Below are positions 26,317 to 60,136 of a DNA stretch of 63,567 nt, piece after piece; the first letter of the stretch is position 1, and every line of letters begins with the position of its first letter. Position numbers and translations under genes: made by a program. The notes under the pieces are model-generated. The model did not search any database. It was not told the DNA's origin and saw only the letters and a program-made list of their open reading frames with translations. Source of the stretch: Phoronis australis (Eukaryota > Animalia > Phoronida); contig NMRA01000792.1 of assembly GCA_002633005.1 (NCBI GenBank), positions 47,271 through 110,837 on the forward strand. Direction: 5' to 3'.

Positions 26317-26376
26317 CTACAACATCAAGTGTTGGATGAGACCGGCTAGCGCGTGCATTTCTGTTATCCGGCGTTC
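26317..26376 (-). CDS. Gene A putative terminal coding exon (ERRITEMHALAGLIQHLML*)
   Basis: Strong acceptor TTCTTTCCTATTTATTCAG, phase 0, TAG stop, AATAAA about 60 nt downstream (26253-26258). Confidence 0.5.
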   Translation of the reverse strand, partial: ERRITEMHALAGLIQHLML

Positions 26377-32300: not shown

Positions 32301-35300
32301 ACTCATTCAACGCGTATGGAATTTGATATTAAGTGCTCGTCATCTGCGTGAGCAATTAATTAACATGGGCTGTTGATTAGTGGAAGTACATTTTGTGAAT
32401 AAGTGAGATATGTTGGTCGGAATTTTGATACGTGCAAGTATTGGGCTAACAAAATGTTTGTTTTAGAATGACATGTATCTTCAGACTAACTGATATGAGT
32501 TGGTCTAATCAACACTGAATACCATTCATCAGTGGCAATGATAACCTTATTAACATGCGATTTCATTAATGTGTTCAGACTACAGATTGAATAGCGATTG
32601 AACTGTGACATACCTTACACTCGAAAGAAAGTCCTGCAAATCTATGCTGTTTGTGTTCACCTCGGTCTCTGCAAGTTTGGCAAAGATCATAGTCCGGGCA
32701 TTCTAGGCACATATATCTCTTGCCATAGATGTCGCCATTGCAGCCATCACACATCACGTTGGAGTGGAAGGTCTTGGTGTTCTTCTCGTCATTACCAGCT
32801 CCAACAACCGCTGTGTGAAACCAGACAACAAATTATGCTGGGGGTATTCACACACCTTTGAATTTAGAGTTGCGAAAGTAGGCAGATCAAACTTCTCGTT
32901 TTCCTTTGAGGCCATTGTTTCTTGCATACACCTGGACACCCATTTATCTATTTTAGGTTAGTAGCTTGAATATGTCATTGAATATTTGTTTTTGCTCCTA
33001 AGACGTCAACAATTGGTTAATTCAACCAAACTTGAATACAAATATACCCTGTAGCTCCAACTGAATTGCAACATTGATTGTGATACCACTTAAGCCCTCT
33101 TTGCAGCAAAGTTAGTAAACATAATAAACATTTACTGACGGAATGTGATATCGTTGGAATGGGAACGACTGGGCTTCACATTGGTATCCAAAATGATTTA
33201 ATTAAACCAAAAATAATAAAAACACTAGAGACCATGCTTGACGCATAAAATGACACAGCGTTTGTTATTAGTATTGCTACCAATTGTCTTATTGTTGTGC
33301 ATATTTTGCATCAAATAAGGGTAAAACACGATGAAAGCGGTAGTTACATTGTGTTTTCCTTCAGTAAGTTACTCGTTTACTTACATCTCACGTATACACT
33401 GAACGTATTTCCTGACAAACTGTCCAAGGCGTCCTCAAGGTCTGTGTCGTTGTCAATCACAACATACTCACCGCCCGTACCTGCAATGTAGTGGTCGAAA
33501 TTGCGAAGACTAGCGGAACGCCCATAATCCTTGATATTCTCAAAATCGTCGTTGGGAAAAGTTTAATGTTTCCATAAAATGTATGTAAATGTCATTAGCT
33601 GAAAGAACTGGCACATCTATGACACCTTTTCTCAAATAAATGAGCTTGGAAAAAACTAAAGCTGATTATTTAATACGTTATTACCCAGATATTACCCCAC
33701 ATTGCTAATGCATTAATTGGTATATCTGAAGAACGATATTTATAATTACTGTTAGAACTGAGTAAGTTGATTCGCTCCATTCATGACCTTTCGGGATTTG
33801 TGCCTGGGTTATTAACTTGAGTATAATGTGTTGGGGTTATTATGATTGTTTCTAGACAGTCACTTTCCGCTAATTTTGCCCTCCAGTAGGACGAAAATTC
33901 TTTCTTTCGTTTTCGTTTTCGTTTACGAACCATGTTACCGGTATCAATCGTTTATTAGCAATGTATAATATCCTAGCCACACCGCAGCTGACCACGAACG
34001 GCATGTTGATGGATGGGTTAGAGTACTAATTAACAATAAGACTTTGCATTATGGGACAAATTTTGCGCAAAATGTGATTTGATTGACAAATTTCAGGTAA
34101 ACAAGTTTCACGTGCTAGGAATCACTTCCGCAAAAGTGGCAAATTTGAATAGAAAAAATATATTTGTGAGGGTAAATGAATATTTTTTGGAATCCTCACA
34201 TATTTTGCCGTGCATAAAAGAAGTGTTAAAAAAAACGACATTTATTGAGACACAGAGGTACACGTATCCTTAAAGCACAGCTCTCCCGTAGGACTTGGCT
34301 CAGTGGCAAAAATTCAGCTGCTACTACTGAGCTTGCGGGTTCTATTCGGCGCTAGTGCTAGCTATAATATTAATTGTCTCGAAGAGAATGTATCTTTAAC
34401 AGTCATCGTTTAAAGTAAAAAAAGCACATTGAAACGCGCAGTCTAAAACGTGTACACTTATAATGGGGCCACCAGTGCCTTCAGTGAAACACGTGGTATG
34501 CGGCAACACACGCTGTATTAGAGAAGTTTCGCAGAGCGGCATGAACGTCAACTATGACGCATACTGTACGTAATTGCGCCTGCCAATTCGGTGTTACAGA
34601 AACAAAATGGGTTTCACAACAGCTAAATTTTTACGCGAACGTGAAAGTAAATGTGACCTTAGTAACTGGGCTCAGGGTGTTCAGTTATCATCCGCTAGTT
34701 GGAAATATAATATCATGTTGAATTTGAAAAAAGTCGCTTCTACAAACTCTTGCAAAAAATGGTCAACTCTTAGAGTGCTACATTTGTTTGGAGTTCCAAA
34801 TAAATAGAAGCACATAAAAATTAACAACACTAAACCATATCTGTTAAAAATTCATTTTGTTTCAATGATTTCCATCTAACCCAGGCGGAATAAGGATTCT
34901 GGAAAAAGTGTTGCCTTTCTTGCAACTAAACTTTAAGAATATTTATAGACAAAAGTATCGTGTTCATTTTATAGTGAAGTAATTAAGGAAGAAAGATTGA
35001 GAATTATATCAAAATGAAAATTTTCTCGTTGTCTTACCAAATAAGAATATAAAAGGCCCACCGGTTTCGCGTTTAAAGCGACGCGAATCTCCCTGAATTC
35101 TCGTAAAATACTCAAACACTATCGGGATTACGTCAAAGCCAACACTGGCATGTATGATGCGGTATTGTAAATATGTGATAACTAAAGTTCAGGTCGCTAT
35201 TTTCAAAATGCACTGTAAGCCGAAACGCAAGCTCATGTTTTTGCCCAAAGTCCATTGTGTCTGTAGGCGACACTCATTTACGCGTTACTCGTGCTTCAGT

Positions 35301-35914
35301 GTGCCGTGGAGCGGAATCGAATTTTCAATACTAGCTTTTTTATCTATGCTCGACGTCACAAAAGTCTAATCACGTGATCTCAGTGAGGTCTTGTTTACCT
35401 AATACAATTGCGGGCAGCCACCAACTCATATATTGTTTACATGTCACGAGAGTCTACAGCCCAGTTTCAGACTGTGTTGAGTTTTGATACTTATTCGACC
35501 AGGAACGTTTACTACGCGACACGTAGAATGAATATAATGATTTATCTTAGGCAAAATATTACGAGTACAAATAAATGAACTTGCACGGTTCAAATTTCAT
35601 GTTTTCAACGACGCTGTATTTGTTAAATCTGCTACAATCTATCACAAGTGCCGTGACCTATAAGTCTTTTGCACAAAGTTATTTAATCAGCATAACACGT
35701 TACTGTGCCTTCAGGACAACAAATCGATTTTACCTTTCCGATACACGCTGTACGCCTTGTTTTTCAGACCCGGAAAAGCGGCACACACTCTCTCTTTAAA
35801 GAATTCAAGCTTCTGATTTGAGATCTTATACGCAGGTATTTCTGTATCGAGAACGAAGCTTCTACTGTACCCGGACTCTTCGCTCCCTATGTGTACTTTG
35901 ACAGAAACACCCAT
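26317..35914 (-). CDS. Gene A: p62/SQSTM1-like PB1 + three ZZ zinc finger protein, about 293 aa, no UBA
   Basis: complement(join(26317-26376,27274-27455,29659-29829,32619-32810,33385-33480,35734-35914)); GT-AG introns with phases 1,1,1,1,0; 882 nt. The last exon is the least certain. Confidence 0.82.
26960..27042. repeat. Tandem duplication of a 41-42-bp unit
   Basis: GGCTTTGCGAATGCATACATTTCGTGGAAAAA(A)CAACGTAAA twice. Confidence 0.9.
27274..27455 (-). CDS. Gene A exon 5, ZZ3
   Basis: THPGIMCDGCQSFLRGTRYECLQCPDYDLCERCKTRGIHALHKFRCIPFPVRGE; GAG|GTAGGC donor, phase 0. Confidence 0.9.
28737..28796. repeat. Perfect palindrome, 29-bp arms with a 2-nt spacer
   Basis: AAGTACTGTGTGTCATTTACGAAACATTT-TT-AAATGTTTCGTAAATGACACACAGTACTT. 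Confidence 0.95.
29659..29829 (-). CDS. Gene A exon 4, ZZ2 (171 nt)
   Basis: HHGVTCDACKCAVYGARYKCIDCPNYDLCGKCKAEGHHQQHRFYC. Confidence 0.9.
30705..31016. repeat. Degenerate (CAT)n microsatellite
   Basis: CATCATCATCAT runs; explains the His/Ser-rich spurious ORF. Confidence 0.9.
32619..32810 (-). CDS. Gene A exon 3, ZZ1
   Basis: [51 protein letters not shown] acceptor. Confidence 0.9.
33385..33480 (-). CDS. Gene A exon 2, PB1 C-terminal half (96 nt)
   Basis: GTGGEYVVIDNDTDLEDALDSLSGNTFSVYVR; TTGCAG acceptor, T|GTAAGT donor. Confidence 0.85.
35734..35914 (-). CDS. Gene A exon 1, PB1 N-terminal half
   Basis: MGVSVKVHIGSEESGYSRSFVLD...FFKERVCAAFPGLKNKAYSVYRK; p62-like VK..R.F..FP.L pattern; G|GTAAAA donor. 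Confidence 0.85.
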
Positions 35915-35977
35915 AGTTTTCCTTGCTTGAGAAACGTTTATTGCGTCGCTAATAATTCAATGTTGACAAATAGCATA

Positions 35978-35988
35978 GGGGTTTTCCC
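35978..35988. promoter_or_regulatory. NF-kappaB/Rel site upstream of gene A
   Basis: GGGGTTTTCCC fits GGGRNWYYCC; about 64 bp upstream of the ATG. Confidence 0.7.
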
Positions 35989-36069
35989 AAATCCTAACCT
36001 CGTTCCCGTTTCCAACAAGCTGTTGGTTACGGCCCAGGCGTTCTAGATTATGGAAATACCTAGAATATC

Positions 36070-36081
36070 GAAAGTGAAAGT
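36070..36081. promoter_or_regulatory. IRF-E/ISRE-like site upstream of gene A
   Basis: GAAAGTGAAAGT fits the tandem GAAANNGAAA IRF consensus. Confidence 0.65.
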
Positions 36082-36745
36082 AACCCGATGTTAGAGATTC
36101 TGCAACTCAAACGAACTCAAATGAAATGCCTGTTCGACATTAATTTGGAGATACCTTCTCCTATTCATTGTCCGCCATTAGCCTGAAACAATATTCACAA
36201 AAATTAGGCAGAAAGTTAACTGTCTGCTTCATGAACGCATTCAGCCTAAAATTTGGGGGGGGCCTCGAATTTTTGAGTATGTGGACACTTTCCTAAAAAA
36301 ACAGGGTACGTTCAGAGCTTTGAATAGTGAACATAGTCAAACATGGTACATGTAGTTCCTGCCTTTTTAGCGGACTTTTGTCTCGTTTTCTACTTTTTCG
36401 GACTTTGTGTTTCACCGGCTGAGACGAACCTGTTTGCCCTCTTCGCCAAATAAGGGAGGGGCTCGTTCGCAGCCCCCCCGGGAGGGGGGGGCGCCCATGT
36501 ACTTGACAAAAATGTCCTCAACTATTGTTTTTTATACTGAGTGTTTTCTGAACGCCACCGAGTTTTAAACCGAGGAGTAAAATTAAGCGCTTCATCATTT
36601 ACTAGTCTCGTTTTAGAATTTATTGTATTTACCATCAAATTTATTTATTGTACAAGTTATGCCGAAGTATCTTAATCAAAAGATCTTTCGAAATTCAAAA
36701 CAAGGTGTAATGTTATCCCTCTTCCGGTGACGTCATGGTTCTAAC

Positions 36746-36900
36746 CTGCCTCCCGTTCAGTAACGCTAGGACCTCGCTAAAAAGCAAGACTTCGCGAGAT
36801 TACGTGAGATATTGCCGTGCATTTTAAATGAGAACACGTGACTTTGACTAGGTTTTAGCTAGGTCCTAGCGTAGGTCCTAGCGTCTACTGAACGCACGCC
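36746..36900. mobile_element. Approximately 155-bp MITE; second copy inverted at 51790-51943
   Basis: TIR CGTTCAGTA(G)ACGCTAGGACCT at both ends; the two copies are closely similar. Confidence 0.85.
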
Positions 36901-37954
36901 TGGATATATACATGTACATGTATAGTTCAATAACTCTAGGGCCTCGGTAGAAAAACGCAAGATAACGCGATATGCATGTATTGGCGTGTACTTTTAATGA
37001 GAGTACGTGATTTTGGCTCGATTTTTCTTGTCGCCAGACAACTATTGAACTCTACCCTGTTTCTGCCCTTCGCTAATCCTAATCAACGTGAACGTGGTTT
37101 TACACATGAAAAGATAAACGTACATGTAGTTTGTGAAAATCTGTGCAACAAGAGGGCGCTTTTGTCCCACTGCGGTGGGGGAAAGCGGGTTACTTCTCCG
37201 TGTAACTAATCTCTTTTCGATATTTAAAAACACTCTACTGTGTTTTTCGTCAGAATGTGTCTTGAAAATATGTATCAAAAGCAATTTGGTCCAACATTTT
37301 CCTATGAACTTACCTGTTTTTGGTAAAGATATGGAAAATAATATACAGCACTTACGTGACGCCTAGAGCAGTGACCTCAGTGTGGACGAATTGCTGACAA
37401 ATTGGTGTACAAAGTCCACAAGTAAATTCTACACTCTTTCTACGTGTAATTTCAAAAATTATTTACTTTTAAGCCGAGCTTGGAAGACGTTTGCTTAAAA
37501 GATCATTATTGGTTTTACTGACGAAAACGCATGATTGGGATTATTGTGGAATGGGTTAGACGTCTTGAAATCATCACCTTTAACAAGAGCTACGAAACAG
37601 CACAACCCTGTGGGTCTTTGTGACGTCATTACAAATCGCTATTCTTCCATGCCCGCCGGGCATTCACTGAAAGCAAGACCGATTTCATGACAGTTTAAGT
37701 ACCCCTAAACTAAAACACGCTGTTATCAAACGCTAACGAGGCTTGGTTCAGAGGCCGGCAGAATGTTCGCCGGCCCTTGTAATTGCTAAGGTAGTGGAGT
37801 CGATACCGGACAGTAATGCAAATACCTATGAAATTATTTTCCACGCCGAGATTGACCCTTTAGTATCAATTTCTGACAGAATCTATAGAATCAAAAAGTT
37901 CTACATGACCGGTCATAGAATTGTCTGAAATTTTACCTGTGGATTCTCAAAGCA

Positions 37955-38030
37955 GTGGGGCTAGCTAGTGTGATGCGTGCCTTCCTTCTTTGCTTAGGGT
38001 TATGGGTTCAAGTCCCATTGCGGCACATTA
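37955..38030 (+). mobile_element. Decayed tRNA-derived SINE-like head
   Basis: B-box-like GGGTTCAAGTCCC; no complete cloverleaf. Confidence 0.3.
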
Positions 38031-40597
38031 CTAGACACATGAGTAAGGTGTCAAGTTCCTTAGATCGACTTTAAGTACGCATTAATAAAGCATATAAATG
38101 GTTCCAGATGGTCAGTGAAATGGGCCAACCTGAGGGGCCTGCGCACGTTTGGCACAACGTGTACCACAGTACACGGCCTGAAATTACGTTTTATCTACCT
38201 CAGATGATACTTATTGACCGCTCCGTCTATTTTTATATCCCCTGAAATTTTTACTTGGAACATGCAAAATTTTCAGCTCAAGATGACCGCTTTTTGTAAC
38301 AGGACAAAACCGTGTAAATTAGGGACTGATATTCGCTACTGTGTAGGCTTTAAAGAATAATATTCGTCCCCAAAANCCCCTGTGACAGACGGTGTAGAAC
38401 CAACCGTGTGCTCTCAAAAATTGTTACTTAGGCGGGCATCAGTTCTCCACGAAGTTTGGCTTCGAAGTGCGTGCAACTAACGAAAAAAGAATGGTGACTG
38501 AGAACGCCAATGTACGTTAAGGTGATGTGAGAAATCATCTGATGGATATAGTCTAACAAAGGGGCGGGCTCTATGCACTTATTCACCCAATCAAGAAACA
38601 CGAAAAAGTTTGAATGACGTCACAAAATCTTGATGTAGACCCTTACCATTATGGAATTTAAGTTTGTCAAAATGTTGGTGTCACGTCTGAAAAGTCGGAA
38701 TTCTGAGTTACATGCATATCGTGGTTTTGTGTAAAATAAATTAGTTTTTGTTAGTTGGGTTAAAAGAAACCTGATCAACTGTACTGACATTTAGCACAGA
38801 GATAGATGGCGGGATGTGCCGGACCGGCAACAGTCGGTATTCGGACAGATTTGGTTACCGTAGCACCCCTTGTTGGTCATTTTAGTTTTTGACAAGACAG
38901 GTTGATTATCTCAAAAAACGCTTGGCACGTCTGCATGGCACAAAGATAACTAGACGGCGGATACGGATGCGGTTTTCGTTTTGATTCGACCACCCTGTTG
39001 GCTGCTTAGTTTTCGACACATTCGAGCAGACAGCTAGTTCGTGACCATAACAGATCATCATGTCTGTCTTAAAGGCAATTTGTTTACAAGTGTTGCTACC
39101 TCTGTAGGAAGTTTGAAATAGTGAGCACCCCTAGCATCTGCAATGCCCACGAAGGGCGCATATCAACATTCTTGTTCATTAATAGCTATTCACTAGAAAG
39201 CATGTGTGACTTTTTATTCCTTGCCTGGGAGGAAGCTGGTGTTGTGTCTGCTAGACCGTTCTCGGCTCACGAAACACGAAAATGTCTGAAGAGAATAAAA
39301 TCTAACATGTACATTACCATGTATAAATGAAGCATAATTTAAAAAAGTAATGTGTGTGGTTGTATTTTATAGTTCAACCTAATTAAAAATGATGGGAGGT
39401 GGGTTGGAGACGTAAAAGAACATTATGGGCGGTGGGTAAAAAAATGAAAAAGTCTCCGACCTCCCATACGTTTTTTACTGGAACAGCCTTTACCGAATCG
39501 ACCAAAAGCCATGCTAAACCTGATATATTATGGTATATTATGGAAGTCGCCATACCATCTCTACGCGTAGTAAAATTCACCCGATGAATTTAAAGAACTT
39601 CGTCACAAGCATTACACACTTTTCACGCGAGCCAGTGCGAATTTTTTGTCACTAAAGACGCCAGTTGGTTGTAATGATGGAGATTCATTGTCTAGAGACA
39701 CGTTCAAACAAAAAGTCTAGAGACGACAATTCATCCTTTGCCGTGACAGCTGAACCATCGTTATTGCTTAGTTTACGAGTGCACCGATAAACTCTGACCG
39801 AGACCAAAAATGCATATGCGCTACCTGCTAAGTGTTGCCAAAGCTACATGTACAGTGCACATGTAGTTAGCAGTAGAGGCGGTATACGTACACAAAACGT
39901 ACGTAGATGAAGTAATGTCCCACGAGATTTTATTATTCCACGTGTCGCCATCGACTGAGACAGTAGGTCGATATCGATACGCGGCATAACTTATGTCGAG
40001 TGGGATATTACTTCATGTATGCCTTTCTAGGTACGTTTTGTATTTATGGTATACACTCTGAATTCTTAACTTTCTTTTAATTTTTGCGAGACTGTTCTTT
40101 AATTTTTTCGAGACTGTTCACGTGGCGGATCACATCCGGTCCTTTCTGTATGTGCTCGTGGGTTATGTTACAAGTTTTCTCTAGTCAAAGAAACAGTTTT
40201 AAATGTAACAATTTGTTATCTGAAAAGAGATAATAAAGATGAAAACATCGGTAAATTTGCATTGAACTTGTAACATTTCCTGAATTCGGCGCCTGAGCTG
40301 CAGATGATATAATATTTAGCAAGTAAACTGAGACAAATTTTTACCAGATGTTATGTTTGGGACCTGACTGCATGTTGAGTGTTATTTAAACTGCTGCAAT
40401 TTTATTTTGCGAAAGTTTGATAATTGAACCGGCTAACGACGTCGAGTCAACCTTGAACTACCTTTTGAATTTTCCAGAGGGCAATGTTCAGATGTTGGAC
40501 AATGCAATATGGAAATTGCCGTATTGCACTCGATTTATTCAACGCGTACTGGATAAAAGATCATATACTATGAAGAATACCATGTATAAGCAAAGAT

Positions 40598-40603
40598 TTT
40601 ATT
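40598..40603 (-). terminator. Candidate poly(A) signal of gene B (paralogous site in gene C at 57635-57640)
   Basis: AATAAA on the minus strand at the aligned position in both paralogs. Confidence 0.5.
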
Positions 40604-42462
40604 ACACATGAAACTCTACACGTGGGTGACAATCTGCCCCTGATGAAAAAGGACGGTACATACGCTGACAACAACCCTAGAGAGCTGAATTCAGACTTAC
40701 AGTACTTAACATTCACCACAAAAGTTTTGCAATAAAATTGTGCTTTGTAAGTACATTTGTGAGTTGTAAAAATTGTTGCAGTTCGTGGTATGAGATTTTT
40801 CTGATGAATGGAAAGGATTGTGCAATTTCTAGTAGTATACTCTTCGACACTTGCTTGACTCCATGTATAAAAATGAAACGAACTGAGAACAGAGTGTATT
40901 TCAAAACAAAACCATTCCATGAACATGTTGTTTTTATTGATTTTGATTTTTTTGTTTTCCGTCCGTCCCTCTGCCCGCGCATGTCGATTAATTGTACCTG
41001 AAACCCAGTTTCACCAATGAAATTTCAAATCGAATTTGGGAATGAAAACTCCCCGGGTGTTTTTGTCCGTAACTGGCCGAAACTCAGATCCTGGTTATAG
41101 CTGTGGTATTTTTGCTTTCACGTGCGTTGTTATATCGTTTCTGTGTTCGCCAATTACAGGAGTAATCACTTGTATGTGGTGTGGAAGTATGAAACAGCAT
41201 ATTATTCACGGCTTTAATAATAATTATTTGTTGAAAGTGATGGTGTACAACAGACGTGATTAAACGGCATTAAAGAGCATTCGTCGTCAGTATGCAGTTC
41301 GCGAAAAAAGGTGTTGCTTTACATAAGGCTACACAGTGATACGCATATGAACAGTGAAAAATTGAAAAATGTGCCAACACCAAGAACTAGTCCGTAATAT
41401 CTATAAGCAAAAAATCCAAAATTCAGCTGGTAACATATTTTAGATCCCCATGGCAACATCTATATCTAAATATAAGCATAATGTATTGTTAATTGTACAT
41501 GTAAGTACTAGCTCTTTAAGACACATCAAAACGTCAGAATCTTAGACCGATACACATTTGTAAGCCAACGCTAGAGGCCGCTGAATCCGGTCCGACTGGT
41601 ACATGTATCTCCACAGGCCGTATGTTCAGACTTGAAAAAGGACATCAGTAGCAACAACAAGCGACCATTTGGATTTTTGATATAATCGGGCTTCATTTCG
41701 TCTGCCTTCTTTTCCCATAAATTTTCACCGTGTAGAAAAATTTTGGCGGAATCGCGAAATCTTGACTTTCAAAAGATGAGAGTTTGACCCTTCCAGGTGA
41801 GTCGGACCAGAGCCATGAAATGGTCTCGACATGCTAGTGACTGACATATTAGTAACAAAGAATCCCTCTTTTGAGCTGTTTCGAACTAAAAAATTATATG
41901 TATGAAGCATTCTTTTAAGAAGATTAAGCAATCAAATGAACAACCAAAGGAACTTTAGAACAATTAAAAGAACGCTATACAGGGGGGAACAATTCTATTC
42001 AAATGATACCGAGAATCTTAGTTTTCAATGAAAGGCCGGATATCAACTCAAGTCATAGCAACATAGGTCAAAAAAGTTTGTCATCCCGCCGTGGCCTGAC
42101 AGCCGATCAAAATGGTAACTTATGCTATTGGTTCTTATTTTATGAAACTGAATTTTTTTCTTCCTGACTGATTTTCTATAAGTATGGGCGGCGCAGCACA
42201 CAAAAAGTGAGTGGGGTAGGTATAGCCCGAGCCCCCTTGTGGTGCACTTCCCATAGACCATGGGGGGCGTAGCACTAGAAAGTGGGGGTATAGCCCCCCA
42301 CCCCTCTCTGTGGTGCGCCGCCAGTGATTAAGATACCTCTATGGTTACGATTGGTGAGCTATAAACAACCCAAAATGTGATTGAACAGAAGACAATCCTC
42401 AAAGATCCAAGCAGCGCATATTTTATATTCTTCGACCAATCCACTTCCCTCTACCTCTTAGC

Positions 42463-42489
42463 TCAGCAAACCAGTATGTTAAACTCCAG
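42463..42489 (-). CDS. Gene B terminal coding exon (LEFNILVC*)
   Basis: Branch-like CTGAC plus TTTCTGTTTTAG acceptor, phase 0; acceptor and coding segment are nearly identical in gene C. Confidence 0.7.
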   Translation of the reverse strand: MEFNILVC

Positions 42490-45400
42490 CTAAAACAGAA
42501 AATGTCAGTTTAGAGAGGATTACTTGAGTATAGACTTGGTGACCTTCATTCATCTTCAAACCGGCGGTGAAAATGAATCTTGAGAGCCACGGAGTAGTGC
42601 GGGCAAAGGACAGGCAATTTATGCTTGTTTTCCTAACACAGACGCCCTGAAGAAGAAACTTTGCTAGAGACCACGTCTGGTTGAATTCATGAATTCCCAC
42701 GTCTCGCGGAACAACCTGTTTATCCTATTTTAATCGGACAACTTCAAAGTTGTCTGTTAATGAAGTTGGGCAAGTTTTGTAATCGGAATTTAGCATGAAC
42801 AAAAGGTTAAATGCCGATATCTAGGCATTATTTTATGAGCAGGATTTCTAGGCATTATCTTATGAGCAAGATTTCTAATCATGACTCTGCCAGTCATTCT
42901 CACTAACTGCAACTGCAGTCTCTCACACAACTTGAGACATGACACGTCAACTACCGCCACCTAGGTTTTACCGAAGCAGTTATTTTCAAGCAGAAGGTCA
43001 GACTTGACTCCAATATACATTAGGTCATTGTTTGTCTCATCATCGCACGGTATGTTCATGTTGACAACCTGTTAAATTTGAAAAGCACATTACTAGGGAA
43101 GCACGCACCTCATCATCAGTCTGCGGAAACTGGAGGCATTTGAACTGGTGTTGTTTGTGAACACCATTCGTGCGGCACTGGTAACACAGATTGTAGCCGA
43201 TGCACTGTAGGCACTCAAACCGGATTCCACAGATTGCGGCGTTACAAAATCCACACGTGAATCCATGGTGATAAATCCAGTACTCTTTGGGAACTAAAAC
43301 GAAAAGCGGCAGCGTAGCGAAAGGAATGTGTTCCATACATGCGTGACAGACCTGAAGCCGCGTTACTCTCACTGAGCAAGACGTAATACCTAACAAATTT
43401 CAACAACAAAACTATACTTTTAACTATCACGAACACTACACATCTTCTGAAAATATGAATGCTGTAGATTTTGAATTTTGACTTTTCACCAACCTGACGC
43501 CAACTGAGTCACATGCCTTTTTATTAACATTGCTATGAATGGCAGCACAATATAACGGAAAATGTTGATAAACCGTACTGGGTTACTGATGTTAAGAAAT
43601 TGCTATTTCAGTTTGGTTTTGGAGAAGCATGGTGCAGTCAGGGTGTAGGGCCCGAGACAAGCTTAATATCAATTTTTGAACAGAGATGCAAAGATATTGA
43701 TCAGCAAAATTGGCAAGAAATTTTGAACAATTCGATTTTTCATTTAAAGGAAACACACTTTAGCAAAGGGCTAATATACAGCATGGTCATCTACAGGTCT
43801 TCATTCACTCCCTTGCACACATTCACAAATAAGACGGAGCTCGAAGGAATAGGAGACACCTTTGTGCAAAGCTCGAATGTCAGCCAGTGAAGCCAGCAAA
43901 AACCCAGGTCTATAATGCGGGAGTACGGAGCTCCAACCACCGAGCCAAACTGTCTCCTCTAAGCTGGAAACTTACAGAGCTTTTAAGTTAATCATATGTT
44001 TTGAAAATTGTTTAGATGTAATTGGACAATGTAAATGTTAGATCTGATATGGTAAGATTAAGATGTTCAGCCCACTTGAAACTTGACAGACCAGAAAGAT
44101 TACTTCCTCGCTATGTTAGATCTTGTGTGAGTCAGAATATCATTTTGTTACTGACATTTTTTCTACGCTGATCTTAGGAAACGAAATTTGCCTGCATGGA
44201 CCTACAACAATCCCTGGCCAATGTTACAAACTTCAACAGACTTATGACTATGGAGGAAAAAGGGTCTTATATGGTAACATGTAAATGTGCTCATTTCGCA
44301 TTTAAGCGAAGACGTGTTTGACACTTACCTTTATTGTATTTGATGATTTGATTGTAACAAGGACGGAGCCCTAGTTATTGAATATATACATGTACATACC
44401 TACATGTACATATACCTACATGTACATACATACATACATGTACACACATACATACATACATACATACATACATACATACATACATAATATGTATAAAGTC
44501 ATAAGTTATACAACGGTGGAGCGTCAGTATAAATGGCCGCACACTGTTTATACTGTACATGTATGTATAGCAAAATTGTACGATGCGGTTGACTTGTTAC
44601 CATCGAGGTCTGCAACGAGAGACGTCTGACATGACACCAGGTTTTTGGATACTGAAAAAAAGTCTCACATTTAGTTTGTTGTAAAATGCAACAATGATGA
44701 TTTTATAATTCTGCATATTTGCTAAATGTTCCATGAAGAAGTTTTGGATGCTTCCACTTCGCATGACGTCAATAAATTTTTACCATGTAATTGTTAGTAC
44801 AGCACAGTGTTGAAATAATTGACGAAAAAAGTGTGAGCGACTGGCAATTTCGGGTATAAGTTTAATTTATTGAAACAAATGATATATCAAATTGGGCACC
44901 AAATGACATCAATCTGTACAGGTATATTTTAAATTACTTGTGCATTAGTTAACACTGTACACTGTGCTGTGGACCTCTGCGTTGAAACTAAACATACATA
45001 CTGGACCATAATATTTGTACAAAGAACATGTTTCTGTCATTTCTATTGCCACGAGTTTCACCAACACTAAGTGTCGATTGTCACCTTTTCCCCATTTGCT
45101 ACTCAATGATGCTAGGTATCGGTACGCGCCATCAACACTTTTAAAAACCCTTCACACCATGGTCATTAATGCTTTGATTCGGTTACCAACGATTTTGGTA
45201 TAGTGTTTAAAAACTCCTTCTTCAATTTGTGCACTTTTAATCAAGAAATCATCCCAAAAACATAAAAATTTAAACTTTTGTGTGACGTCATCAGTGGCCC
45301 GGTCTCCGCCACTTTGTTGCTCTACACCAAATGCTCGCCGAAGTGGCCTCGAAAACTGAGTTCGACTGAGTATTATGAAAATTTACATGTGCAGTGGACG

Positions 45401-48400
45401 GAAAATGCAGTAGCAACATTCGGACAGACTATATTTCAGTTTTTGCGTTTCCACAAGTGGCACGGTCTAAATCCTCACAAAGTGTAAAAATGCATTGCAG
45501 GAACGTTTTAAAAAATTGGAACACGGCTGAAGTTTCCTCACAAAACCTGTGTAGGCTAGTTATGACATTCGAGACTGCAAGTTGATGATTGACAAATATG
45601 TATGACAGAAATGTCAGACCCCGTGTTGTTTGTAAAAAGATTGTTGTGTAACGATTAAGTAGAAATGAATTAAAATCACGAGTTGATAGCATCTGGTGCC
45701 CAATTAAAGATTGTGAGGTCATGTGCTTTGCTTGCAATGCGTGGCAATCATGATCTCGCAGCATAAACTGGCAGTATGAGGAAACCTGCTTTTGATAGGT
45801 GAAGTAGGTGAAACCCCTAAAACATAATTTAAAGCGGAACCGATACTAACCTTACTTGGGAGGGCGATGCAGCAGAACTCGTGATGCGCGTGATGACCTT
45901 GCATCTTACACCGTTCACAAAGGTCAAAGTTAGGACAGTCGGTGCATTTGTAACGGGCGCCGTGCACAAGACGGGTGCACCCGTCACATGTTATGCCGGG
46001 TTGACAAATTGTGCTTCTTATAGGTACTGGAAGCAGAAATGACAATCTAACCAGTCATCGAACTATAGCGGCGTGGGCGTAAGATTATCCTGGGGACAAA
46101 AAAGTGGAACTTCTGCAGGCGAACATTATCTAACCGGCAGGCCGCGTGAGGGCTTTACCATTGGTAGATACAGTGCAAGTATGCGGAGTAGAAAATTGGT
46201 CGTGACCAGGATGAATTTTATCTTCTCACTTAGGATTTTTCACCACTTGGTTTTTGTCTCGAGATGTGTCGGTATGGCCTTGGATGTCCCTGCAAAGGTA
46301 TTTTGCTGGTCTAGATTTTGGATGCAGTCAACATGTATAGAAGAACAAATCTTTATGTGATTGAAATGCCGAGAGTTGGGGCTCATCGGTAAAATGCCGA
46401 GCCTGAATTGGTAAGGGAATTCTTAAAAGGACTAAAACCTGTTTCGTTTTTGCAATTTCAACCAATCGTTTTGTCGCGTACTAAGTGCATCACTGGCGTG
46501 TCACGGCTTGAGTAACAAAAGCAGGGTTAACAAAAAACACTTACTCACTCTGTGACAAAAATGATGTTAAGGTTCTTCGTTGGCGGTCTTTCCACAATTG
46601 TCGTGTAACTACTCTTACAGCGTATGCCACGCTTGTTACTAAACATTCTTTTTTCAAAGAGAGTTGGCTGGGGAAAGTTAATAGGCACAGTTGGAACCTT
46701 AAAACGAGTGTATCCTTTGTGCGTTAAACTTTCTTGTAGGTTTTTGTCAAATGTAATTATTTTTAAATAGTTATGATCAAAACCTCATGCAGCAAAGTCA
46801 TAATTGTTTTAGTTCAGCCGTGGGGAGGAGCTCCAGCATGGTTTTGGTGCTCATAAAATGTTGTTGTTCCGGCACGTTAGAGTTCATAATTACATTTCAT
46901 AACACGTTGCAGGTCACAACAGAAAACGCATTACCACCAAGACCCTACAGCTAGGATTTCCCTATGAATAAAACTTCAACTAGAAGTGGCTCACACGATG
47001 AAGGAACAATTAGCTCCCTTTCCGGTAAGCCCAAGTCCCACTTCTTTGAAAGAACAATGGTTTAGATCCGTTTTTTAGCAGAAACTCTTGCTTTAGTTTC
47101 AAAGCTTAAGGGGAGATTGTTGACTGAGAGATCTTTTGTCAATAAATACTGACAAGGCTTTGGTGTAGAAATGGTAAGAATTTGTGAATGAATGAAGAAA
47201 CGGCAGAGATTTGAAAACAGCTTTTCTCAACTTGCGCCCCCACAAGTCTTCTTCTTAAACGAAAAATAATACAATTTCTTCTTTGTCGCTCACTATTCGC
47301 TGCCTGGCCGATCACACAGAGAGTTAACGAAACTGGAACGAAACAAAACATAATTTTAATCAGTCTTTAGTAAATCTAGCCAATAGGAGAACCATAAATT
47401 AATCACAAAAACAAAGCCACGGCAACCGAGGTGTTCAGTACTAGAAAAAGGAACTGGATGACCAAAAACATGTAGTGAGAAAATTTCGCCAACGGGGGTA
47501 ATGGTCAATTAGGGCCCGCCAAATTGCAGTCGTCTCTGCTGACATATCAATAATTAAATCAAAAGATGGCTTTGTATTACGCTTAATCTTTAGAGGCCTA
47601 AAAGGTGACTACTGGTAAATATGTCAGGAGTTCCACAATCAGCGGTGACGTCATGTGGTGCGGAACGCTAAACGATTCTAAAAAGCATTGTCTGTCACGT
47701 GCCACTTTAGTCACCAGAAGTCAGTGAGATTCTGATACGTATGATTGCTCTCATATTCTGAAAGTTAAAAAGATAAGCGATTTAATTATTTAGTCGTTTC
47801 TTGAAATTTGACTTCGACCATCGAATGGATTCATTAATCATTGGGATTTGCAAAAGAAACCGCTAGCAGCCAATGTTGTCCATAGAGGGCACTGGCGGCT
47901 AATAAGGGAAATAGCAACACTAGCTTGAAAGAAACCTACCTTACGTTGAAAGAAGAAGCATGCGAATGCGTGTTCTCTGTGGATCTTCTGACGTTTGCAA
48001 CGTTCGCACAAATCATAGTCCGGGCATTGTAGGCACGTGTAGCGTCTACCAATAATAGAGCCGCTACAGTTATTACACGAAACGTCGTTGTGTAAGACCC
48101 CCGCTGGCTTTGCGTCACTTTCATCCGCTGGGGAATAAAATGCTGGTTAGGCCAAAAAATATCATGATCGTTTCTGGTTAAAAGTTGAAATGAGTTAATC
48201 TGGAAAAATAATCAGCGTTCGAAATGCACGCTGGCCTGGTGGCCCGGGGTGCGGCCAGGCCATTAACTTTGAACATATAGGCCCTGTGTGGATGTGGTCT
48301 AATATTTAATTAATTCAAAAAAGGTCTATTAAACTAATTTTGTTTGCTTCTCATCTCTTGAACGTCAACGAGTTTGAACCTTGAGGGTAATAAATCCGGG

Positions 48401-48912
48401 ATAGCCCTATTCACTTTGTTAACTCATAACCCTGGAATGCCAATTACTCCCGCGCGCATTTGGGTACCCGAGACTAGCCGCGGCTGTTTGCACTACTCGA
48501 CTGTGAGTTTTAATCGATATTGTAGTAACCAAATGAAGCCCAATTTCACGACTTCATTTTCATTTTGTTATAATTGTTTTGCTTTACTAGATACGGTTCC
48601 ACACAATCAGCGGTTTCTCGGCAAAATTAGTCAACAAGCACGACGTTTTCACTGGCCATTCTTTATAAGCACCGACCTGCCGCCCTGTCAGTGGAAGCCG
48701 GAAGTAGTTTGGCCTCTGATATCATTTTAGCTCCAGTCGCAGAACCTATGATAGTAGACTACATGCCAGGATTTTTTCAACACGACATTTTGGATGTTAA
48801 AATCATGTTACAATATTTTACAGAAAGATAGTTGATCTAAATGAAAAGTTCAGGCCTCAAAAACAGGTGTGTTAACATAACTTTAAAAAAACATTACTCA
48901 TAGATAAGTGAA

Positions 48913-48960
<48 letters not shown>

Positions 48961-51900
48961 TGAGTGAGTGCGTGCGAGCGCGTGTGCATGTATTATTACT
49001 GTTTTCAATATTTTCTATAATTCATTTCTGCAATATTTACCTCCCAATTGCCGTTTTCTTGTTCCTTCCATTTCTGAGAAGTCGGCCTACTGTTATCTGT
49101 AGCATTTAAACATACCCGCAAAATAAAGTTTTAAAGAATGAAAAGAGCCCAATCCAGTCCTCATGCTGCTGACGACGTACAGTGCATTTGCCAATTGCTC
49201 CGCTCTTGTTGACCCACTTTTTAATTTTTCCCGCCATCCATCCCGCCACACCATCTACATGTCACGCTTTTTGACTAACGGCCAAATTGACATATTATCA
49301 TATACTATGGTAATTTCCCACGCAACATAGTTATATTTTCCCTCTGGATTAAGGAGTAAAAAGAGATGTTACATGGTTTTTTGCGCACTTGCAATTTCCC
49401 ATTGAATTACAAACAACAACAACAAAAAAAACGCTGTCTGGCATTTTGTATGTTACATCCCCCGTTCGACGAAAAACGTTGTCGGCACGTCTTTGTGTTG
49501 CAGCGAATCGGTACTTCTTTATGTGTTGCAGCGAACATTTTACCCTCCTTTTTGGCTTCGGCCCAGATCTCTCGCTTTTTATCCAAATTCCGCTTTTCAA
49601 CATTACGGCGTTTTCCCCGTTGCTCCCAGCTTGTTCGATTCTGTAGCCCAACAACAAGTTGTGAAGTTTACCCCTATAGCCAACATCTTACACGACTGAT
49701 TAACTCCATTCTGGAATTTATGGTTGGATGGCCAGCTCTCTTTTGGTCGATAATTGATCTAATCTCCAATAAATCGTATTTACCCTAACTGGCCTGTGCT
49801 GTAAAAATGAAAGTTAAGTTATAACATATTTGAACATAAACCAATAGCATTTCTGAAATCTTGGTCCAACTGCAACCGAAGTTGCGACAATCTATTCTTT
49901 CCGAATACATCAATTCACTCTGAGTTTGACTGTGTTCACACGTGGTCTGTAATAAGCCAGGTAGATAATTGACCTGCTTGTTGTCATAACAGACAAAAGA
50001 GTGCGCTTGGCAGTTAACAAAGAAGTTGCATGTAAATGTTATCACACCCTCAGAATCCCCTTCTGGTAAAGCCACTGAACGGGAAAACGCTGTCACGTTC
50101 AGAAGTTCTGCTCCTTCATTCTTGAATGTTGACCGTGACGACTATGCAAGAGGTGTTCAAAATAATTTTACAGTCTCTTTTTGTCAACATTTTAATTTCT
50201 AGGGTTCACTTTCTTTGGCAACATAGCAATCGTAACAATGTGTTCCAATGTCTCTTGTTTACGGTAACTTACATTATACATGTATGTATCAAGATCACTA
50301 AATTTTACTTTCTGAGAAAAAGAGTTTATTTCTAAACTATTATGGAAAGTCCTGCACTGCAAGCAACGTGATGGGCTATTCACAGTACATTTCAAACCTG
50401 TGTGATGAATGTTTGCCCTAATTTTTATGTATCAGAAAACCTTTCTCTGCAAATTTTGGATAGAGTAATTTATCGCATTCTTCGTAAATGTCACTGCATT
50501 CTGAATTTTTACTGAATAATTGTATCAAAAGGCATCAATATGAATAAGGATGTATAACTTTAGACCAGTGCCTCTCTAAATCATCCACTGACAGCAAGCG
50601 TAGGGATCCATATTCTAAAATATTTGTCTTAATATAGGGTAGAAATTTTTGAATCATTGAAATTATTTCCGTAGTGGCTTAACTAGTCGTTTACATAACA
50701 TCTCTGTTTCATTTCCTTTTTATGTTACTATTACATACTGTTATTTTTCGCATTTTGTTAACCCTCTTGGTTTTTAGAATTAAAAATATTTTAAACCAGT
50801 CAAGTATGCGAAATAATGAGTTAAATTAGTTATCTTTTGCTTCTGATATAATCATCAAGAACTGAAAAAGGGCTTTCTAATGATGTGGCTATTATGAAAT
50901 TCAGTTGAAAAAACGGAGTGAGTTGCGAAAGGTTTTAATGACAATAAATTCCATAGCAAGTACACACACCGGAACAAAGGAATGAAAACAACTCTCACGC
51001 ATGCGCGGCGCAACCTCAGAGACTGCGAGATCGCCGGGAGTTGGCATGATTCCAGGGCTAAAGTTAGGGGCTTTTATTTCGTAACCAGACCTTACGTGGT
51101 GTTTACGTATACATCCCAGTTACCATGGATCAACTCCTCACCTAGAGTGAATAGCATAACAAATATTGTTCTCGAGCACATGCGCATTAAGTGAACAGGA
51201 TAATGAAAAACGTAGCTAAGATGGTAAAAGTAGGGCCAGCAACTTGGCAGGGCATTTATTTGCTGAAGTCCGGAGAGCTTAATTACAGCGGTAACGTTTA
51301 TACCTTTAATGTAGATCTTGAGTTCCTTTCTAGAATGGCTGTCAAAGGCTTGATCAAGTTGTTCACTATTCTCCAGTACTCTGTACTCGCCATCATCACC
51401 TGAAAAAAGTGCGTGAGAGCTCTGAGATCCGTTCGGCATAAAAGATACTTATCTCAGAGAAATTTGGTTTTACGCCGGCTCGCGCTTTCCAAATAATGAT
51501 TAGAAGTTCACCCAAGTGATTACGAACACCGCATCACTGACTATAAAAATCGCAAACATTTTTCAAGTCTGGTCGTCGGGCCACCCGAGTGGCCACATCT
51601 AGTGACCTACTGAATATGTGAAACGATTTCTGTCCCGACCAACAGGTACCTTCCTTACAGACGCTACAGTCCACTAAGCCATCACCGGACCGCATACGGT
51701 CAAATTCAAAATTCCAAACAGACTTAGTAGTGGGCGTATCTCGCCCTTAGAACTGTACATCGCGAGCATTTTTAAGTCTGGTCAACACGGGCGTGCGTTC
51801 AATAGACGCTAGGACCTACGCTAGGACCTAGCTAAAATCTAGTCAAGATCACGTGTTTTCATTTAAAATACACGACAACATCTCACGTAATCTCGCGAAG

Positions 51901-54900
51901 TCTTGCTTTTTAGCGAGGTCCTAGCGTTACTGAACGGGAGGCAGTAGATGTGTGGTCACATCACGTGACCTAAAGAACATAAGACTGCCTTATTGGATTT
52001 CTGTATAAACCGGTGGTCCCGATGACTCAGTGGAGTGAAGGAGCTTCTGCACGGTTAGCAGAAGGTCCCAGTTGGGGCAGAAATCTTTACAGGGTTATAC
52101 TCTCTACTACGTTTATATTTGTTAGGTCATATGATGTGACCACAGGTGACGTGCAGGTCAGACTTAAAAATTTTGCGATTACATTTCCACGCTTGTTTAA
52201 GAATTTCACATTCATACTGTATAGATTAGAAATAATTTATCGAAATTATCTGTTATTATCAGTTTTGTGTACATGTAATTATATTCTCAAAGATTTTGAA
52301 CTTTTGCTCAAGTTAGATTCAACTATTTTTCTAAAATAGTCGTGCCAAAAGTAACACCAAAGTTCATGAACTGTACCCCAGGGTGACCCTCGTCAATATG
52401 CCTTTGTACACTTCCCTAAAATTAATGATTTGAGAAATAATACCTAAGCTTACTGTTAATTTAAAGTTTTTGAGAATAACATAAATGNAAAGAAGTTATA
52501 TGTTATCACACCCTCAGAAGCCCCTTCTTCTGGTAAAGTCACTGAACGGGAAAACGCTGTCATGTTCAGAAGTTCTGCTCCTTCATTCTTGAATGTTGAC
52601 CGTGACCACTATGCAAGAGGTGTTCAAAAATAAATTTGTCTCTTTTTGTCAACGTTTTAATTTCCAGGGTACACTTTCTTTGGCAACATAACAATCGTAA
52701 CAATGTGTTCCAATGTCTCTTGTTTACGGTAACATACATTATACATGTATGTATCAAGATCACTAAATTTTACTTTCTGAGAAAAAGAGTTTATATCTAA
52801 ACTATTATGGAAAGTCCTGCACTGCAAGCAACGTGATGGGCTATTCACAGTACATTTCAAACCTGTGCGATGAATGTTTGCCCTAAGTTTTATGTATTAG
52901 AAAACCTTTCTCTTCAAATTTTGGATAGAGTAATTTATCGCTTTCTTCGTAAATGTCACTGCATTCTGAATTTTTTCTGAATAATTGTATCAAAAGGCAT
53001 CAATATGAATAAGGATGTATGACTTTAGACCAGTGCCTCACTAAATCATCAACAGCAAACGTGGGGATCCATATTCTAAAATATTTGTCTTAATATAGAG
53101 TAGAAATTTTTTAATCATTGAAATTATTTCCGTAGTGGCTTAACTAGTCGTTTATATAACATCTCTGTTTCATTTCCTTTTTATATTACTATTACATACT
53201 GTTATTTTTCACATTTTGTTAACCCTCTTGGTTTTTAGAATTAAAAAATATTTTAAACCAGTCAAGTATGCGAAATAATGAGTTAAATTAGTTATTATCG
53301 TTTGCTTCTGATATAATCATCAAGATCTGACAAACGGCTTTCTAATGACATGGCTATTATGGAATTCAGTTGAAAAAACGGCGGGAGTTGCGAAAGGTTT
53401 TAATGACAATAAATTCCATAGCAAGTACACACACCGGAACAAAGGAATGAAAACAACTCTCACGCAAGCGCGGCGCAACCTCAAAGACTGCGAGATCGCC
53501 GGGAGTTGGCATTATTCCAGAGCTAAAGTTAGGGGCTTTTATTTCGTAACCCTACGTGGTGTTTACGTATACATCCCAGTTACCATGGATCAACTACTCA
53601 CCTAGAGTGAATAGCATAACAAATATTGTTCTCGAGCACATGCGCATTTAGTGAACAGGATAAATAAGAAAAACGTAGCTAAGATGGTAACAGTAGGGCC
53701 AGCAACTTGGCAGGACATTTATTTGCTGAAGTCCGGAGAGCTTAATTACAGCGGTAACGTTTATACCTTTAATGTAGATCTTGAGTTCATTTCTAGAATG
53801 GGTGTCAAAGGCTTGATCAAGTTGTTCAGTATTCTCCAGTACTCTGTACTCGCCATCATCTCCTGAAAAAAGTGCACTGTGAGCTCTGAGATCCGTTCGG
53901 CATAAAAGATACTTATCTCAGAGAAATTTGGTTTTACGCCGGCTCGCGCTTTCCCAATAATGATTAGAAGTTCACCCAAGTGATTACGAACACCGCATCA
54001 CTGACTATAAAAATCGCAAACATTTTTCAAGTCTGGTCGTCGGGCCACCAGTGGCCACATCAAGTGACCTACTGAAACGATTTCTACCCCGAACAACAGG
54101 TACCTTCCTTGCATACGCTCCCGTCCACTGAGCCATCACCGGACCACATATGGTCAAATTCAGAATTCCAATCGGACTTAGTAGGCATATCTCGCCCTTG
54201 GAATGTACATCCAACATTTTTAAGTCTGGTCAACACGGTAGATGTGGCCACATCACGTGACCTAAGGAATATATGACTGCCTGATTGGATTTCTGTATAA
54301 ACCGGTGGTCCCGATAGCTCAGTGAACTGAAGGAACGTCTGCACGGTTAGCAGAAGGTCCCAGTTGGGGCAGAAATCTTTACAGGGTTATTCTCTCTACG
54401 TTTATATTCACTAGGTCATATGATGTGACCACGTGTGGCGTGCAGGTCAGGCTTAAGAACTTTGCGATTATAAATGTTTTTCCACGCTTATTTCATGTTT
54501 ATATAGAGTAGAAATAATTTATCGAAATTACCTCAGTTATTATCAGTTTTGTGTAACTATATTCTCAAAGATTTTGAACTTTTGCTCAAGTTAGATTTAA
54601 TTATTTTTGTAAAATAGTAAAGTAACACCAAATTTCGTGAACTGGACCGGCCAGGGTGGCCCTCGTCAATATGCCTTTGTACACTGTTCTCAAAAATAAT
54701 AAATTTACAAATAAAATCTAAGCTTACTATGAACTTTCAAATCCTAACTTTCGTTAATTTAAAGTTTTTGAGAATAATATGGAAGACTTTTTATCCTGGT
54801 CAAAGAGTATTAATTTCATCCGGGCGAACAGAGTACATACACTTGTTGCGTACTGAATGAGCTCAAGAAATATCTGCCTAAGTTTATTTGCATTTACTAC

Positions 54901-55359
54901 GATTTACTTCCCTACGGGCCTCCATAGCACAATAAAACGCCCCAGCTGTAAGTAAGACCCGTACGAACTGTTCAAAGCTATGTTCGCGCTTCTAACTCTA
55001 ATCTATGTTCTTACCGTCTCACCGTGCCCCAGAGACGGTAATTAAGACAAAAAGAATCGTCTGTGTTGCCTGCCTCTTGGGGGCCAAGTTTCCAAAAGCC
55101 ATTATAGTCTGTACAATTATTTGTAGCAATGTACAGTGAATAAGTGTACAGTCAAGTTGATATTACCTGCCCAGCGAAGACTGAATGCCTTCCCTCTCAA
55201 AATCGGGAAAGCCTCCACACACAATTTCTGCCGAAATGCCTCCATTTTGAGGTTAGAGACCAAGGTCAATTTTTCTCTGTCGACATCCAAAGTTCGACAA
55301 GCGACATCTTTGTCCGTTCCAGATTGCAGGAAAGCCTTGACTTGAATAGGTTGGGACAT
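42463..55359 (-). CDS. Gene B: p62/SQSTM1-like PB1 + three ZZ + C-terminal LIR-like motif, about 284 aa, no UBA
   Basis: complement(join(42463-42489,43109-43293,45856-46026,47945-48127,53767-53862 or 51304-51399,55167-55359)); phases 1,1,1,1,0; 855 nt; same exon layout as gene A. Confidence 0.85.
43109..43293 (-). CDS. Gene B exon 5, ZZ3 (185 nt)
   Basis: YHHGFTCGFCNAAICGIRFECLQCIGYNLCYQCRTNGVHKQHQFKCLQFPQTDDE; GAG|GTGCGT donor. Confidence 0.9.
44385..44486. repeat. (TACA)n microsatellite
   Basis: Direct reading. Confidence 0.95.
45856..46026 (-). CDS. Gene B exon 4, ZZ2 (171 nt)
   Basis: CQPGITCDGCTRLVHGARYKCTDCPNFDLCERCKMQGHHAHHEFCC; same length as gene A exon 4. Confidence 0.9.
47945..48127 (-). 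CDS. Gene B exon 3, ZZ1
   Basis: DESDAKPAGVLHNDVSCNNCSGSIIGRRYTCLQCPDYDLCERCKRQKIHREHAFACFFFQ, a frame not shown in the ORF track; TTCCCCAG acceptor. Confidence 0.9.
48913..48990. repeat. (TG)n microsatellite
   Basis: Direct reading. Confidence 0.95.
49601..50097. mobile_element. MITE, same family as 2280-3372
   Basis: Starts CATTACGGCGTTTTCCCCGTTGC and ends GAACGGGAAAACGCTGTCA; colinear with 2556-3099. Confidence 0.8.
51304..51399 (-). CDS. Gene B exon 2, copy b (96 nt; duplicate or second haplotype)
   Basis: GDDGEYRVLENSEQLDQAFDSHSRKELKIYIK; three amino-acid differences from copy a, splice sites intact. Confidence 0.75.
51790..51943. mobile_element. MITE insertion present in only one copy of the duplicated segment
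   Basis: Copy 2 reads CAACACGGTAGATGTG (54231-54246) uninterrupted, whereas copy 1 has the element between CAACACG and GTAGATGTG. Confidence 0.85.
53767..53862 (-). CDS. Gene B exon 2, copy a (96 nt, PB1 C-terminal half)
   Basis: GDDGEYRVLENTEQLDQAFDTHSRNELKIYIK. Confidence 0.85.
55167..55359 (-). CDS. Gene B exon 1, PB1 N-terminal half
   Basis: MSQPIQVKAFLQSGTDKDVACRTL...FRQKLCVEAFPILRGKAFSLRWA (compare p62 LTVKAYL); G|GTAATA donor. Confidence 0.87.
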
Positions 55360-55536: not shown

Positions 55537-55568
55537 AACCTACCAAAAATAGCGAATCTCCTTAAATC

Positions 55569-59461: not shown

Positions 59462-60136
59462 TCAGCAAACCAGTATGTTAAACTCCGACTAAAACAGAAA
59501 GAAGATGACGTCAGTATACAGAGGATTACAAGTCGAGATTTGGTGACCTTGAAAAGGAAGCATTTACCCTCAAACGTTGAAGATGATGAAGTTTGTACTT
59601 GCGAATCACGTAAGCCGAGGGCGAAGGACAGGCAATTTTTCTTGTTTTCATAACAAAGACGTTTAGAACAATTTACTTTGTTAGAGACCCAATTGCGAAA
59701 TTTTTATCATGAGTTGGTGCCTGCTTACAGATAATGGAGTTAGACAAGTCTCTCACACACGGCTTGATACAGGACACGTCAACTATCGCCACCTAGCGTA
59801 TTCCAAAGTAGTTGTTTTAGATTTTGCAATCGTAATTGTCTCCAAGGTAGGTCACATTTACCTCATCATAGTACAGTTATTTCAGTAAGATGACATCATG
59901 TCCCGTTTGCTACTTCGAATTTGAAAACTACATTACAAAGAGGATACGCACCTCTCCATCAACAGGAGGAAAAGGGAAACAATTGAACTGGTGTTCCCTG
60001 TGATTGCCACGCGTTCGGCACGGTTGACACAGATTGTAGTCGATACACTGTTGGCACTCAAACCGGGTTCCACAGATGGCTTCCTCACAAGATCCGCACG
60101 TGAATCCATGGTGACAAATCTGCTGTTCTTTGGGAA
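59462..60136 (-). CDS. Gene C (3' part only): last ZZ exon plus terminal exon; upstream exons lie beyond the window or are lost
   Basis: 59952-60136 (185 nt): CHHGFTCGSCEEAICGTRFECQQCIDYNLCQPCRTRGNHREHQFNCFPFPPVDGE, GAG|GTGCGT donor. 59462-59488: SEFNILVC*. Confidence 0.85.

Follow-up and report, generated by a model that had tools for sequence, protein, structure and literature searches.

The window, by which we mean the whole stretch of 63,567 nucleotides from Phoronis australis that was analysed, holds seven ZZ-finger exons on its minus strand, all seven of which score above the cut-off of Pfam PF00569. These exons make up three tandem genes, A, B and C. In genes A (293 residues) and B (284 residues) a domain of about 95 residues at the N-terminus is spread over two exons; three ZZ exons and a final short exon follow. 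Both models are open throughout, and their introns, all GT-AG, have phases 1, 1, 1, 1 and 0. Gene C reaches into the window only with its ZZ3 exon and its last exon, its upstream exons lying beyond it. Four public sequencing runs were compared with positions 40400-60300 (B and C) and 23500-43400 (A); one of them, X1, is a set of contigs and the others, X2 to X4, are raw reads. The comparison took in about 18% of each run, and 15 of 80 joints were listed for the B/C region and 15 of 74 for the A region. The features are as follows.

35914-35734, 33480-33385, 32810-32619, 29829-29659 and 27455-27274, minus strand: gene A exons 1-5 (four joints, in 4 of 4 runs)
26317..26376, minus strand: gene A last coding exon, 19 residues, without [WFY]xx[LIV] (X1 contig)
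55167..55359, minus strand: gene B exon 1, coding part, N-terminal half of the PB1-like domain (gene model, fold model)
51304..51399, minus strand: gene B exon 2, 96 nt, C-terminal half of the PB1-like domain (Atlas; joint to exon 1)
47945..48127, minus strand: gene B ZZ1 exon, pocket N/D/D (PF00569, alignment; both joints are absent among the 15 of 80 listed and hence predicted from GT-AG and frame)
45856..46026, minus strand: gene B ZZ2 exon, pocket D/N/D (PF00569, alignment)
43109..43293, minus strand: gene B ZZ3 exon, whose 3' end codes for the acidic residues upstream of the candidate core (PF00569, PDB, alignment)
42490..43108, minus strand: gene B last intron, 619 nt, GT-AG, phase 0 (X1 contig, gene model)
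42463..42489, minus strand: gene B last coding exon, LEFNILVC-stop, with the candidate LIR core FNIL (sequence; joint in X1 contig)
41628..42462, minus strand: gene B 3' UTR, the portion under the junction-spanning contig (X1 contig)
59952..60136, minus strand: gene C ZZ3 exon, pocket G/D/N (PF00569, alignment, X1 contig)
59462..59488, minus strand: gene C last coding exon, SEFNILVC-stop, joint predicted (sequence)

Some further features were seen in the same stretch. A block of 1.76 kb occurs twice at 94% identity (50033-51790 and 52497-54238, with an N at 52488), either as a tandem duplication or as two haplotypes assembled side by side. The repeated block contains a second copy of B exon 2 (53862-53767), with 3 replacement and 0 silent differences; the listed joint from B exon 1 lands on the copy at 51399. 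A short repeat at 36746-36900 and 51790-51944, with copies 95% identical and a read depth far above that of its surroundings, is a high-copy interspersed element. On the plus strand, a spliced gene at about 8359-20238 has exons matching Pfam PF22669 (endonuclease/exonuclease/phosphatase family 2) and looks to us like an inositol 5-phosphatase. Finally, since an X1 contig links the start of the C ZZ3 exon (60136) to sequence fitting the B ZZ2 exon (45861), the data suggest that the ZZ2 exon of C lies outside the window and resembles B ZZ2 more closely than the two ZZ3 exons resemble one another.

The earlier note on this DNA had predicted that the ZZ3 exon is spliced to a short terminal coding segment, and RNA data bear this out for gene B. 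The joint uses a donor GT after 43109 (phase 0) and an acceptor AG before 42489, and it is carried by an assembled contig of X1 (record 2, 995 nt, depth 38.9), in which 43293-43109 passes into 42488-42373. At 42489 the contig differs by one letter, a synonymous change (Leu). That X1 represents RNA is a guess; the junction contig nevertheless is without two GT-AG introns. Among the 15 of 80 joints listed, the entry for the last joint of B bears the X1 letter change and has 0 raw reads in each of X2, X3 and X4, and an entry without the change could exist. Support for this joint thus comes from one contig, which counts against the reading we favour below. The joint between B exons 1 and 2 occurs in 4 of 4 runs (raw reads 2, 5 and 3), as does the ZZ2-ZZ3 joint 43293-45856 (raw reads 2, 2 and 1). 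In gene C the sequence yields a near-identical tail, SEFNILVC-stop, by a predicted joint with its donor after 59952 and its acceptor before 59488; no last joint of C was found among the joints listed (15 of 80 and 15 of 74). X1 contigs match the 3' UTR of C at 58280-58690 with 1 difference and at 58918-59426 with 2 differences. The acceptor at 42646 that the earlier note gave as an alternative is used by none of the listed joints (15 of 80, 15 of 74). This acceptor and read-through of the intron, both considered as endings of B, would give tails without the motif, and neither is supported among the listed joints.

Gene A, with a PB1-like domain, three ZZ fingers and a tail, ends differently. 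A contig of X1 (record 3, 1432 nt) connects its ZZ3 exon to an acceptor at 26376, four further joints of the gene being present in 4 of 4 runs (region 23500-43400), and the resulting tail of 19 residues lacks both aromatic residues and a [WFY]xx[LIV] match. A search for DNA similarity between the last exon of A and those of B and C found none. From this LIR-free tail it follows that a LIR core is not family-wide. The tail of A (26317-26376) is rich in leucine over its 19 residues and could form an amphipathic helix. X1 contig sequence at 29659-29799 and 32619-32810 belongs to a further A-like paralog absent from the window, with 16 differences from gene A in 141 nt and 28 in 192 (about 85-89% identical) and with twice the contig depth of A.

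The origin of the three genes was then considered. The earlier note had traced them to p62, with the long C-terminal half of that protein lost, and both parts of this view are supported. Searched against the PDB, B ZZ3 had p62 as the best 13 of 20 matches. B exon 2 resembles PB1 in the Atlas (0.87, a lead below 0.9; 178 shared features; 10 of 10 family hits within one family or clan), and no usable match was obtained there for B exon 1. Sequence searches of Pfam and the PDB returned no PB1 on either half-exon. The model of exon 1 (pLDDT 65, pTM 0.39) has the order strand-strand-helix-strand and gave many weak matches, with Z of about 3, to ubiquitin-like and PB1 chains, among them residues 3-68 of p62 PB1 (Z 3.2, rmsd 2.9, 58 aligned); its top match, with Z 4.7, is unrelated, and there was no match with Foldseek at E<=0.001 and none with VIA-align at Z>=5. 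Exon 2 measures 96 nt with phases 1/1 in A and B alike. We take exon 2 of human SQSTM1 to be 96 nt as well, with intron 1 in codon 69, which fits the alignment to residues 3-68, and the donor at c.301 presumably comes after the last PB1 strand. This human donor at c.301 is in phase 1 (PMC7767559).

No UBA domain is present in A or B, the stop coming 8 (B) or 19 (A) codons past the ZZ3 exon in the spliced contigs, and no further coding exon follows. A motif scan of the last introns and the 3' regions for a leftover p62-type LIR or UBA exon gave 4 isolated matches, which were judged to be chance. An FW domain, which defines NBR1 (PMC9582228), is absent too: the PB1-like domain, the three ZZ fingers and the tail account for all 284 residues of B and all 293 of A. 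Judged by these comparisons, A, B and C are likely derivatives of p62 and not p62 proper. In a tree of the ZZ exons only the ZZ3 exons of B and C grouped, and no branch was starred. Homologue searches gave none for B exon 1 (including 1.84 billion representatives), B ZZ3 or A ZZ3 (longer proteins only); they came back blank even for the ZZ queries, which shows the word filter to be limiting, and are therefore weak. A metagenome scan gave 4 loci with matches of 10-23 residues, which were treated as chance.

We also compared the acidic pockets of the ZZ fingers. The ZZ domain of p62 binds N-termini via D129, D147 and D149 (PMC6197226). At these positions the alignment shows three Asp in A-ZZ1 and A-ZZ3 alone, and no ZZ of B keeps the full set, the pockets of B being N/D/D in ZZ1, D/N/D in ZZ2 and G/G/N in ZZ3, with G/D/N in C-ZZ3. 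The N/D/D pocket of B ZZ1 equals that of S. pombe Nbr1-ZZ1, N63/D81/D83, which binds cargo N-termini (bioRxiv 2021.02.07.430097). By the same alignment, ZZ3 of B, the finger adjoining the tail, has lost its acidic pocket.

The tail itself contains FNIL, residues 279-282 of B, which fits the core [WFY]xx[LIV], and the same core occurs in C. The residues before Phe are D, D, E, L, E in B and D, G, E, S, E in C, so that acidic residues lie upstream in both. The earlier note had the motif assembled across the last splice junction; this is right for the upstream acids, and wrong for the Glu before Phe and the entire core, which lie inside the last exon. FNIL is the sole match outside folded domains among 8 core matches in B. 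It comes after the Pfam ZZ match, about 7 residues past the last ZZ strand, at the free C-terminus, from which the core ends two residues away in B. A plain core falls within the first 8 codons of 21 of the 172 acceptor-like sites of the window (12%), and acid plus core within those of 3; among random 8-mers, acid plus core has a frequency of 0.5%. The candidate motif is present in B and C and absent in A, and the searches retrieved no orthologues, no full-length family protein and no ATG8.

When scored with the iLIR patterns, the tail failed both xLIR and cLIR (B without a match, C judged by eye) because Asn after Phe is allowed by neither, both patterns as given in PMC5119064 not permitting Asn after the aromatic residue. 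These patterns are narrow: they miss the validated Atg39 LIR, WNLV (PMC6971691), and FCIL of ATG2A/B, validated too, does not match xLIR (PMC7297954). Asn follows the aromatic residue in validated LIRs of RACK1, SHC1 and Atg39 (PMC7297954, PMC6971691) and, by our count, in 2 of the 99 aromatic-led cores of Table 1 of PMC7297954. As a base rate, 33 functional motifs were found among 310 consensus matches (PMC9907853). Taken together, the tail of B and C is plausible as a LIR, with about even odds. The terminal cysteine, to which the earlier note had drawn attention, has no role that anything in the analysis supports. Prenylation was rejected, since in a CaaX box the Cys stands fourth from last and here it is last.

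How does this architecture compare with known systems? Like p62/SQSTM1, B has an N-terminal PB1-like domain followed by ZZ, no FW domain and an intron of phase 1 directly behind the PB1-like domain. Whereas p62 has one ZZ, a UBA and a long disordered region, B has three ZZ and neither of the other two, and whereas the LIR of p62 is W-type and internal, the candidate of B and C is F-type and terminal. Fungal Nbr1 (S. pombe, C. thermophilum) and Atg19/Atg34 have several ZZ, have lost the UBA and have kept a LIR, a layout that B shares with its candidate LIR. CtNbr1 is made up of PB1, four ZZ, FW and LIR (PMC9233695), UBA loss with multiplied ZZ and a retained LIR is described for fungal Nbr1s (PMC9582228, PMC9233695), and S. 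cerevisiae Atg19 uses a C-terminal LIR (PMC9582228). The ZZ domains of fungal Nbr1 choose cargo by N-termini (bioRxiv 2021.02.07.430097), and the NVT route of S. pombe delivers via ESCRT and not by conventional autophagy (PMC9233695). Unlike the fungal proteins, A and B have neither FW nor coiled coil and are animal proteins, and because A, B and C are likely p62-derived the likeness would be convergent.

The tail resembles the C-terminal LIR of ATG4A/ATG4B in having acids and then F-x-I-L. The validated LIR of ATG4B, FEIL, occupies residues 388-391 of 393 and is preceded by four acids (PMC6562779, PMC7297954); the core thus ends two residues before the C-terminus. In contrast to ATG4B, the tail has Asn for Glu after Phe and Leu (B) or Ser (C) for an acid at -2, and the host protein is unrelated. 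A lineage-specific expansion of ZZ-containing sequestosome-related genes is known from C. elegans, sqst-2 to sqst-5; SQST-5 has a single ZZ as its sole described domain, and the main text makes no mention of PB1, LIR or UBA (PMC7682890). LIRs at the C-terminus are already known, and so are multi-ZZ receptors without a UBA. Searches of the open-access literature turned up no animal p62 derivative of the PB1-triple-ZZ type.

The reading we favour, and to which we give an even chance, is that B and C are p62/SQSTM1-derived ZZ proteins without a UBA whose acidic-FNIL tail would bind ATG8, so that they may serve as ubiquitin-independent selective-autophagy receptors. It builds on what was observed in B: the exon chain, the splice from ZZ3 to the tail, the ZZ domains and no coding exon after the tail. 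The PB1-like domain would oligomerise or co-polymerise with canonical p62 and so give avidity, ZZ1 and ZZ2 would hold the N-termini of cargo, and ZZ3 with its lost pocket might bind differently or serve as a spacer. The Phe and Leu of the tail would occupy two pockets of ATG8, as in the C-terminal LIR of ATG4B, while the upstream Asp and Glu would touch basic ATG8 residues; paralog A, without a LIR core, would need a PB1 partner for reaching ATG8. The likely p62 ancestry, the lack of a UBA or any other LIR, the combination of acid and core, its ATG4B-like position, its rarity (3 of 172) and the end of the conserved B/C tract at the stop argue for a LIR. The failure of xLIR and cLIR, the cheapness of a plain core, the rarity of Asn after the aromatic residue, the lack of a core in A, the marginal conservation at the codon level, the UTR tracts of equal conservation and the closeness of the core to the last ZZ strand argue against one, and the missing PB1 hit in the Pfam and PDB searches counts against the reading as a whole.

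A second explanation, which we think quite possible without thinking it probable, is that the tail is constrained and is not a LIR. It might be a hydrophobic strand packing on ZZ3 or PB1, a C-terminal ligand of the PDZ class II-like type, or a degron, the proteins themselves acting as PB1/ZZ scaffolds, p62 decoys or metal-stress proteins that touch autophagy, if at all, via p62. Hydrophobic runs such as FNILVC fit the core easily; the same architecture without a core in A implies that the family does not need one, and the tail fails the iLIR patterns. C. elegans paralogs of p62 that contain ZZ are, moreover, tied to zinc and cadmium responses (PMC7682890). This explanation nevertheless leaves unexplained both the acidic run directly before the aromatic residue and the ATG4B-like distance to the terminus.

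Whether the tail is constrained at all was judged from the comparison of B with C. The last exons agree at 25 of 27 coding bases, as the earlier note had it, and both differences lie in codon 1. That the surrounding intron had diverged is too simple a description: identity between B and C is 79% at the aligned positions of the last intron, 78% for the ZZ3 exon and 79-81% for the 3' UTR. From these alignments B and C are young duplicates, about 80% identical in intron and UTR too, and because they are recent duplicates the agreement of their tails is weak evidence. Among 27-column windows of the B/C alignment, 129 of 3606 reach 25/27, many of them in UTR, and the probability of at least 25/27 is 0.02-0.07 depending on background. 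A tract beginning at the acceptor and running to 3 nt beyond the stop has 39 of 41 nt identical and is followed by 7/30 ungapped; its P of 0.003-0.01, at a background of 0.78-0.81, is for a post hoc choice. At the codon level conservation of the tail is marginal, with P 0.05 against the neutral (synonymous) rate and 0.27 against the replacement rate of ZZ3, which evolves fast in B/C (dN 0.24, dS 0.41), and the identity of 7 of 8 tail residues has P 0.18. The tail thus seems to bear some sign of constraint, which is no independent confirmation of the motif.

The tail could also be incidental, the downstream exons of p62 having been lost, a nearby intronic or UTR acceptor recruited and the frame closing after 8 codons, with B and C sharing the result only via recent duplication or gene conversion. 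The last exon of A is unrelated, the identity of B and C stays at about 80% all along with 129 of 3606 windows as conserved, 7 tail codons are without synonymous change and a plain core is found at 12% of acceptor-like sites, all of which suits this account; we nevertheless consider it improbable, as it sits badly with an identity of 39/41 bounded by acceptor and stop, with acid plus core at just 3 of 172 sites and with the sole allelic change seen at the exon start being synonymous.

If, as we favour, the tail of B and C binds ATG8, these would be minimal receptors, consisting of a polymer domain, cargo fingers and a LIR, that choose cargo without ubiquitin. Gene B with the motif and gene A without it would form a natural pair for contrasting receptor and passenger. 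More speculatively, and with considerable doubt on our part, an animal lineage may have rebuilt p62 into a few multi-ZZ receptors that take cargo independently of ubiquitin, in convergence with fungal Nbr1/Atg19, and in which the ZZ exon was triplicated, the UBA dropped and a recruited 8-codon exon became an ATG4B-type LIR in B and C, A-like paralogs being carried via PB1; this would amount to a Cvt/NVT-like route in a metazoan. If the tail does not bind, there remains a fast-evolving, unreported cluster of p62 paralogs.

Beyond the coding tail, B/C homology 3' of gene B reaches about 40045, and the long 3' regions of B (40045-41827) and C (57022-58817) align over about 1.8 kb. They hold several tracts conserved like the coding tail, for example near 41110-41154, which are possible UTR elements.
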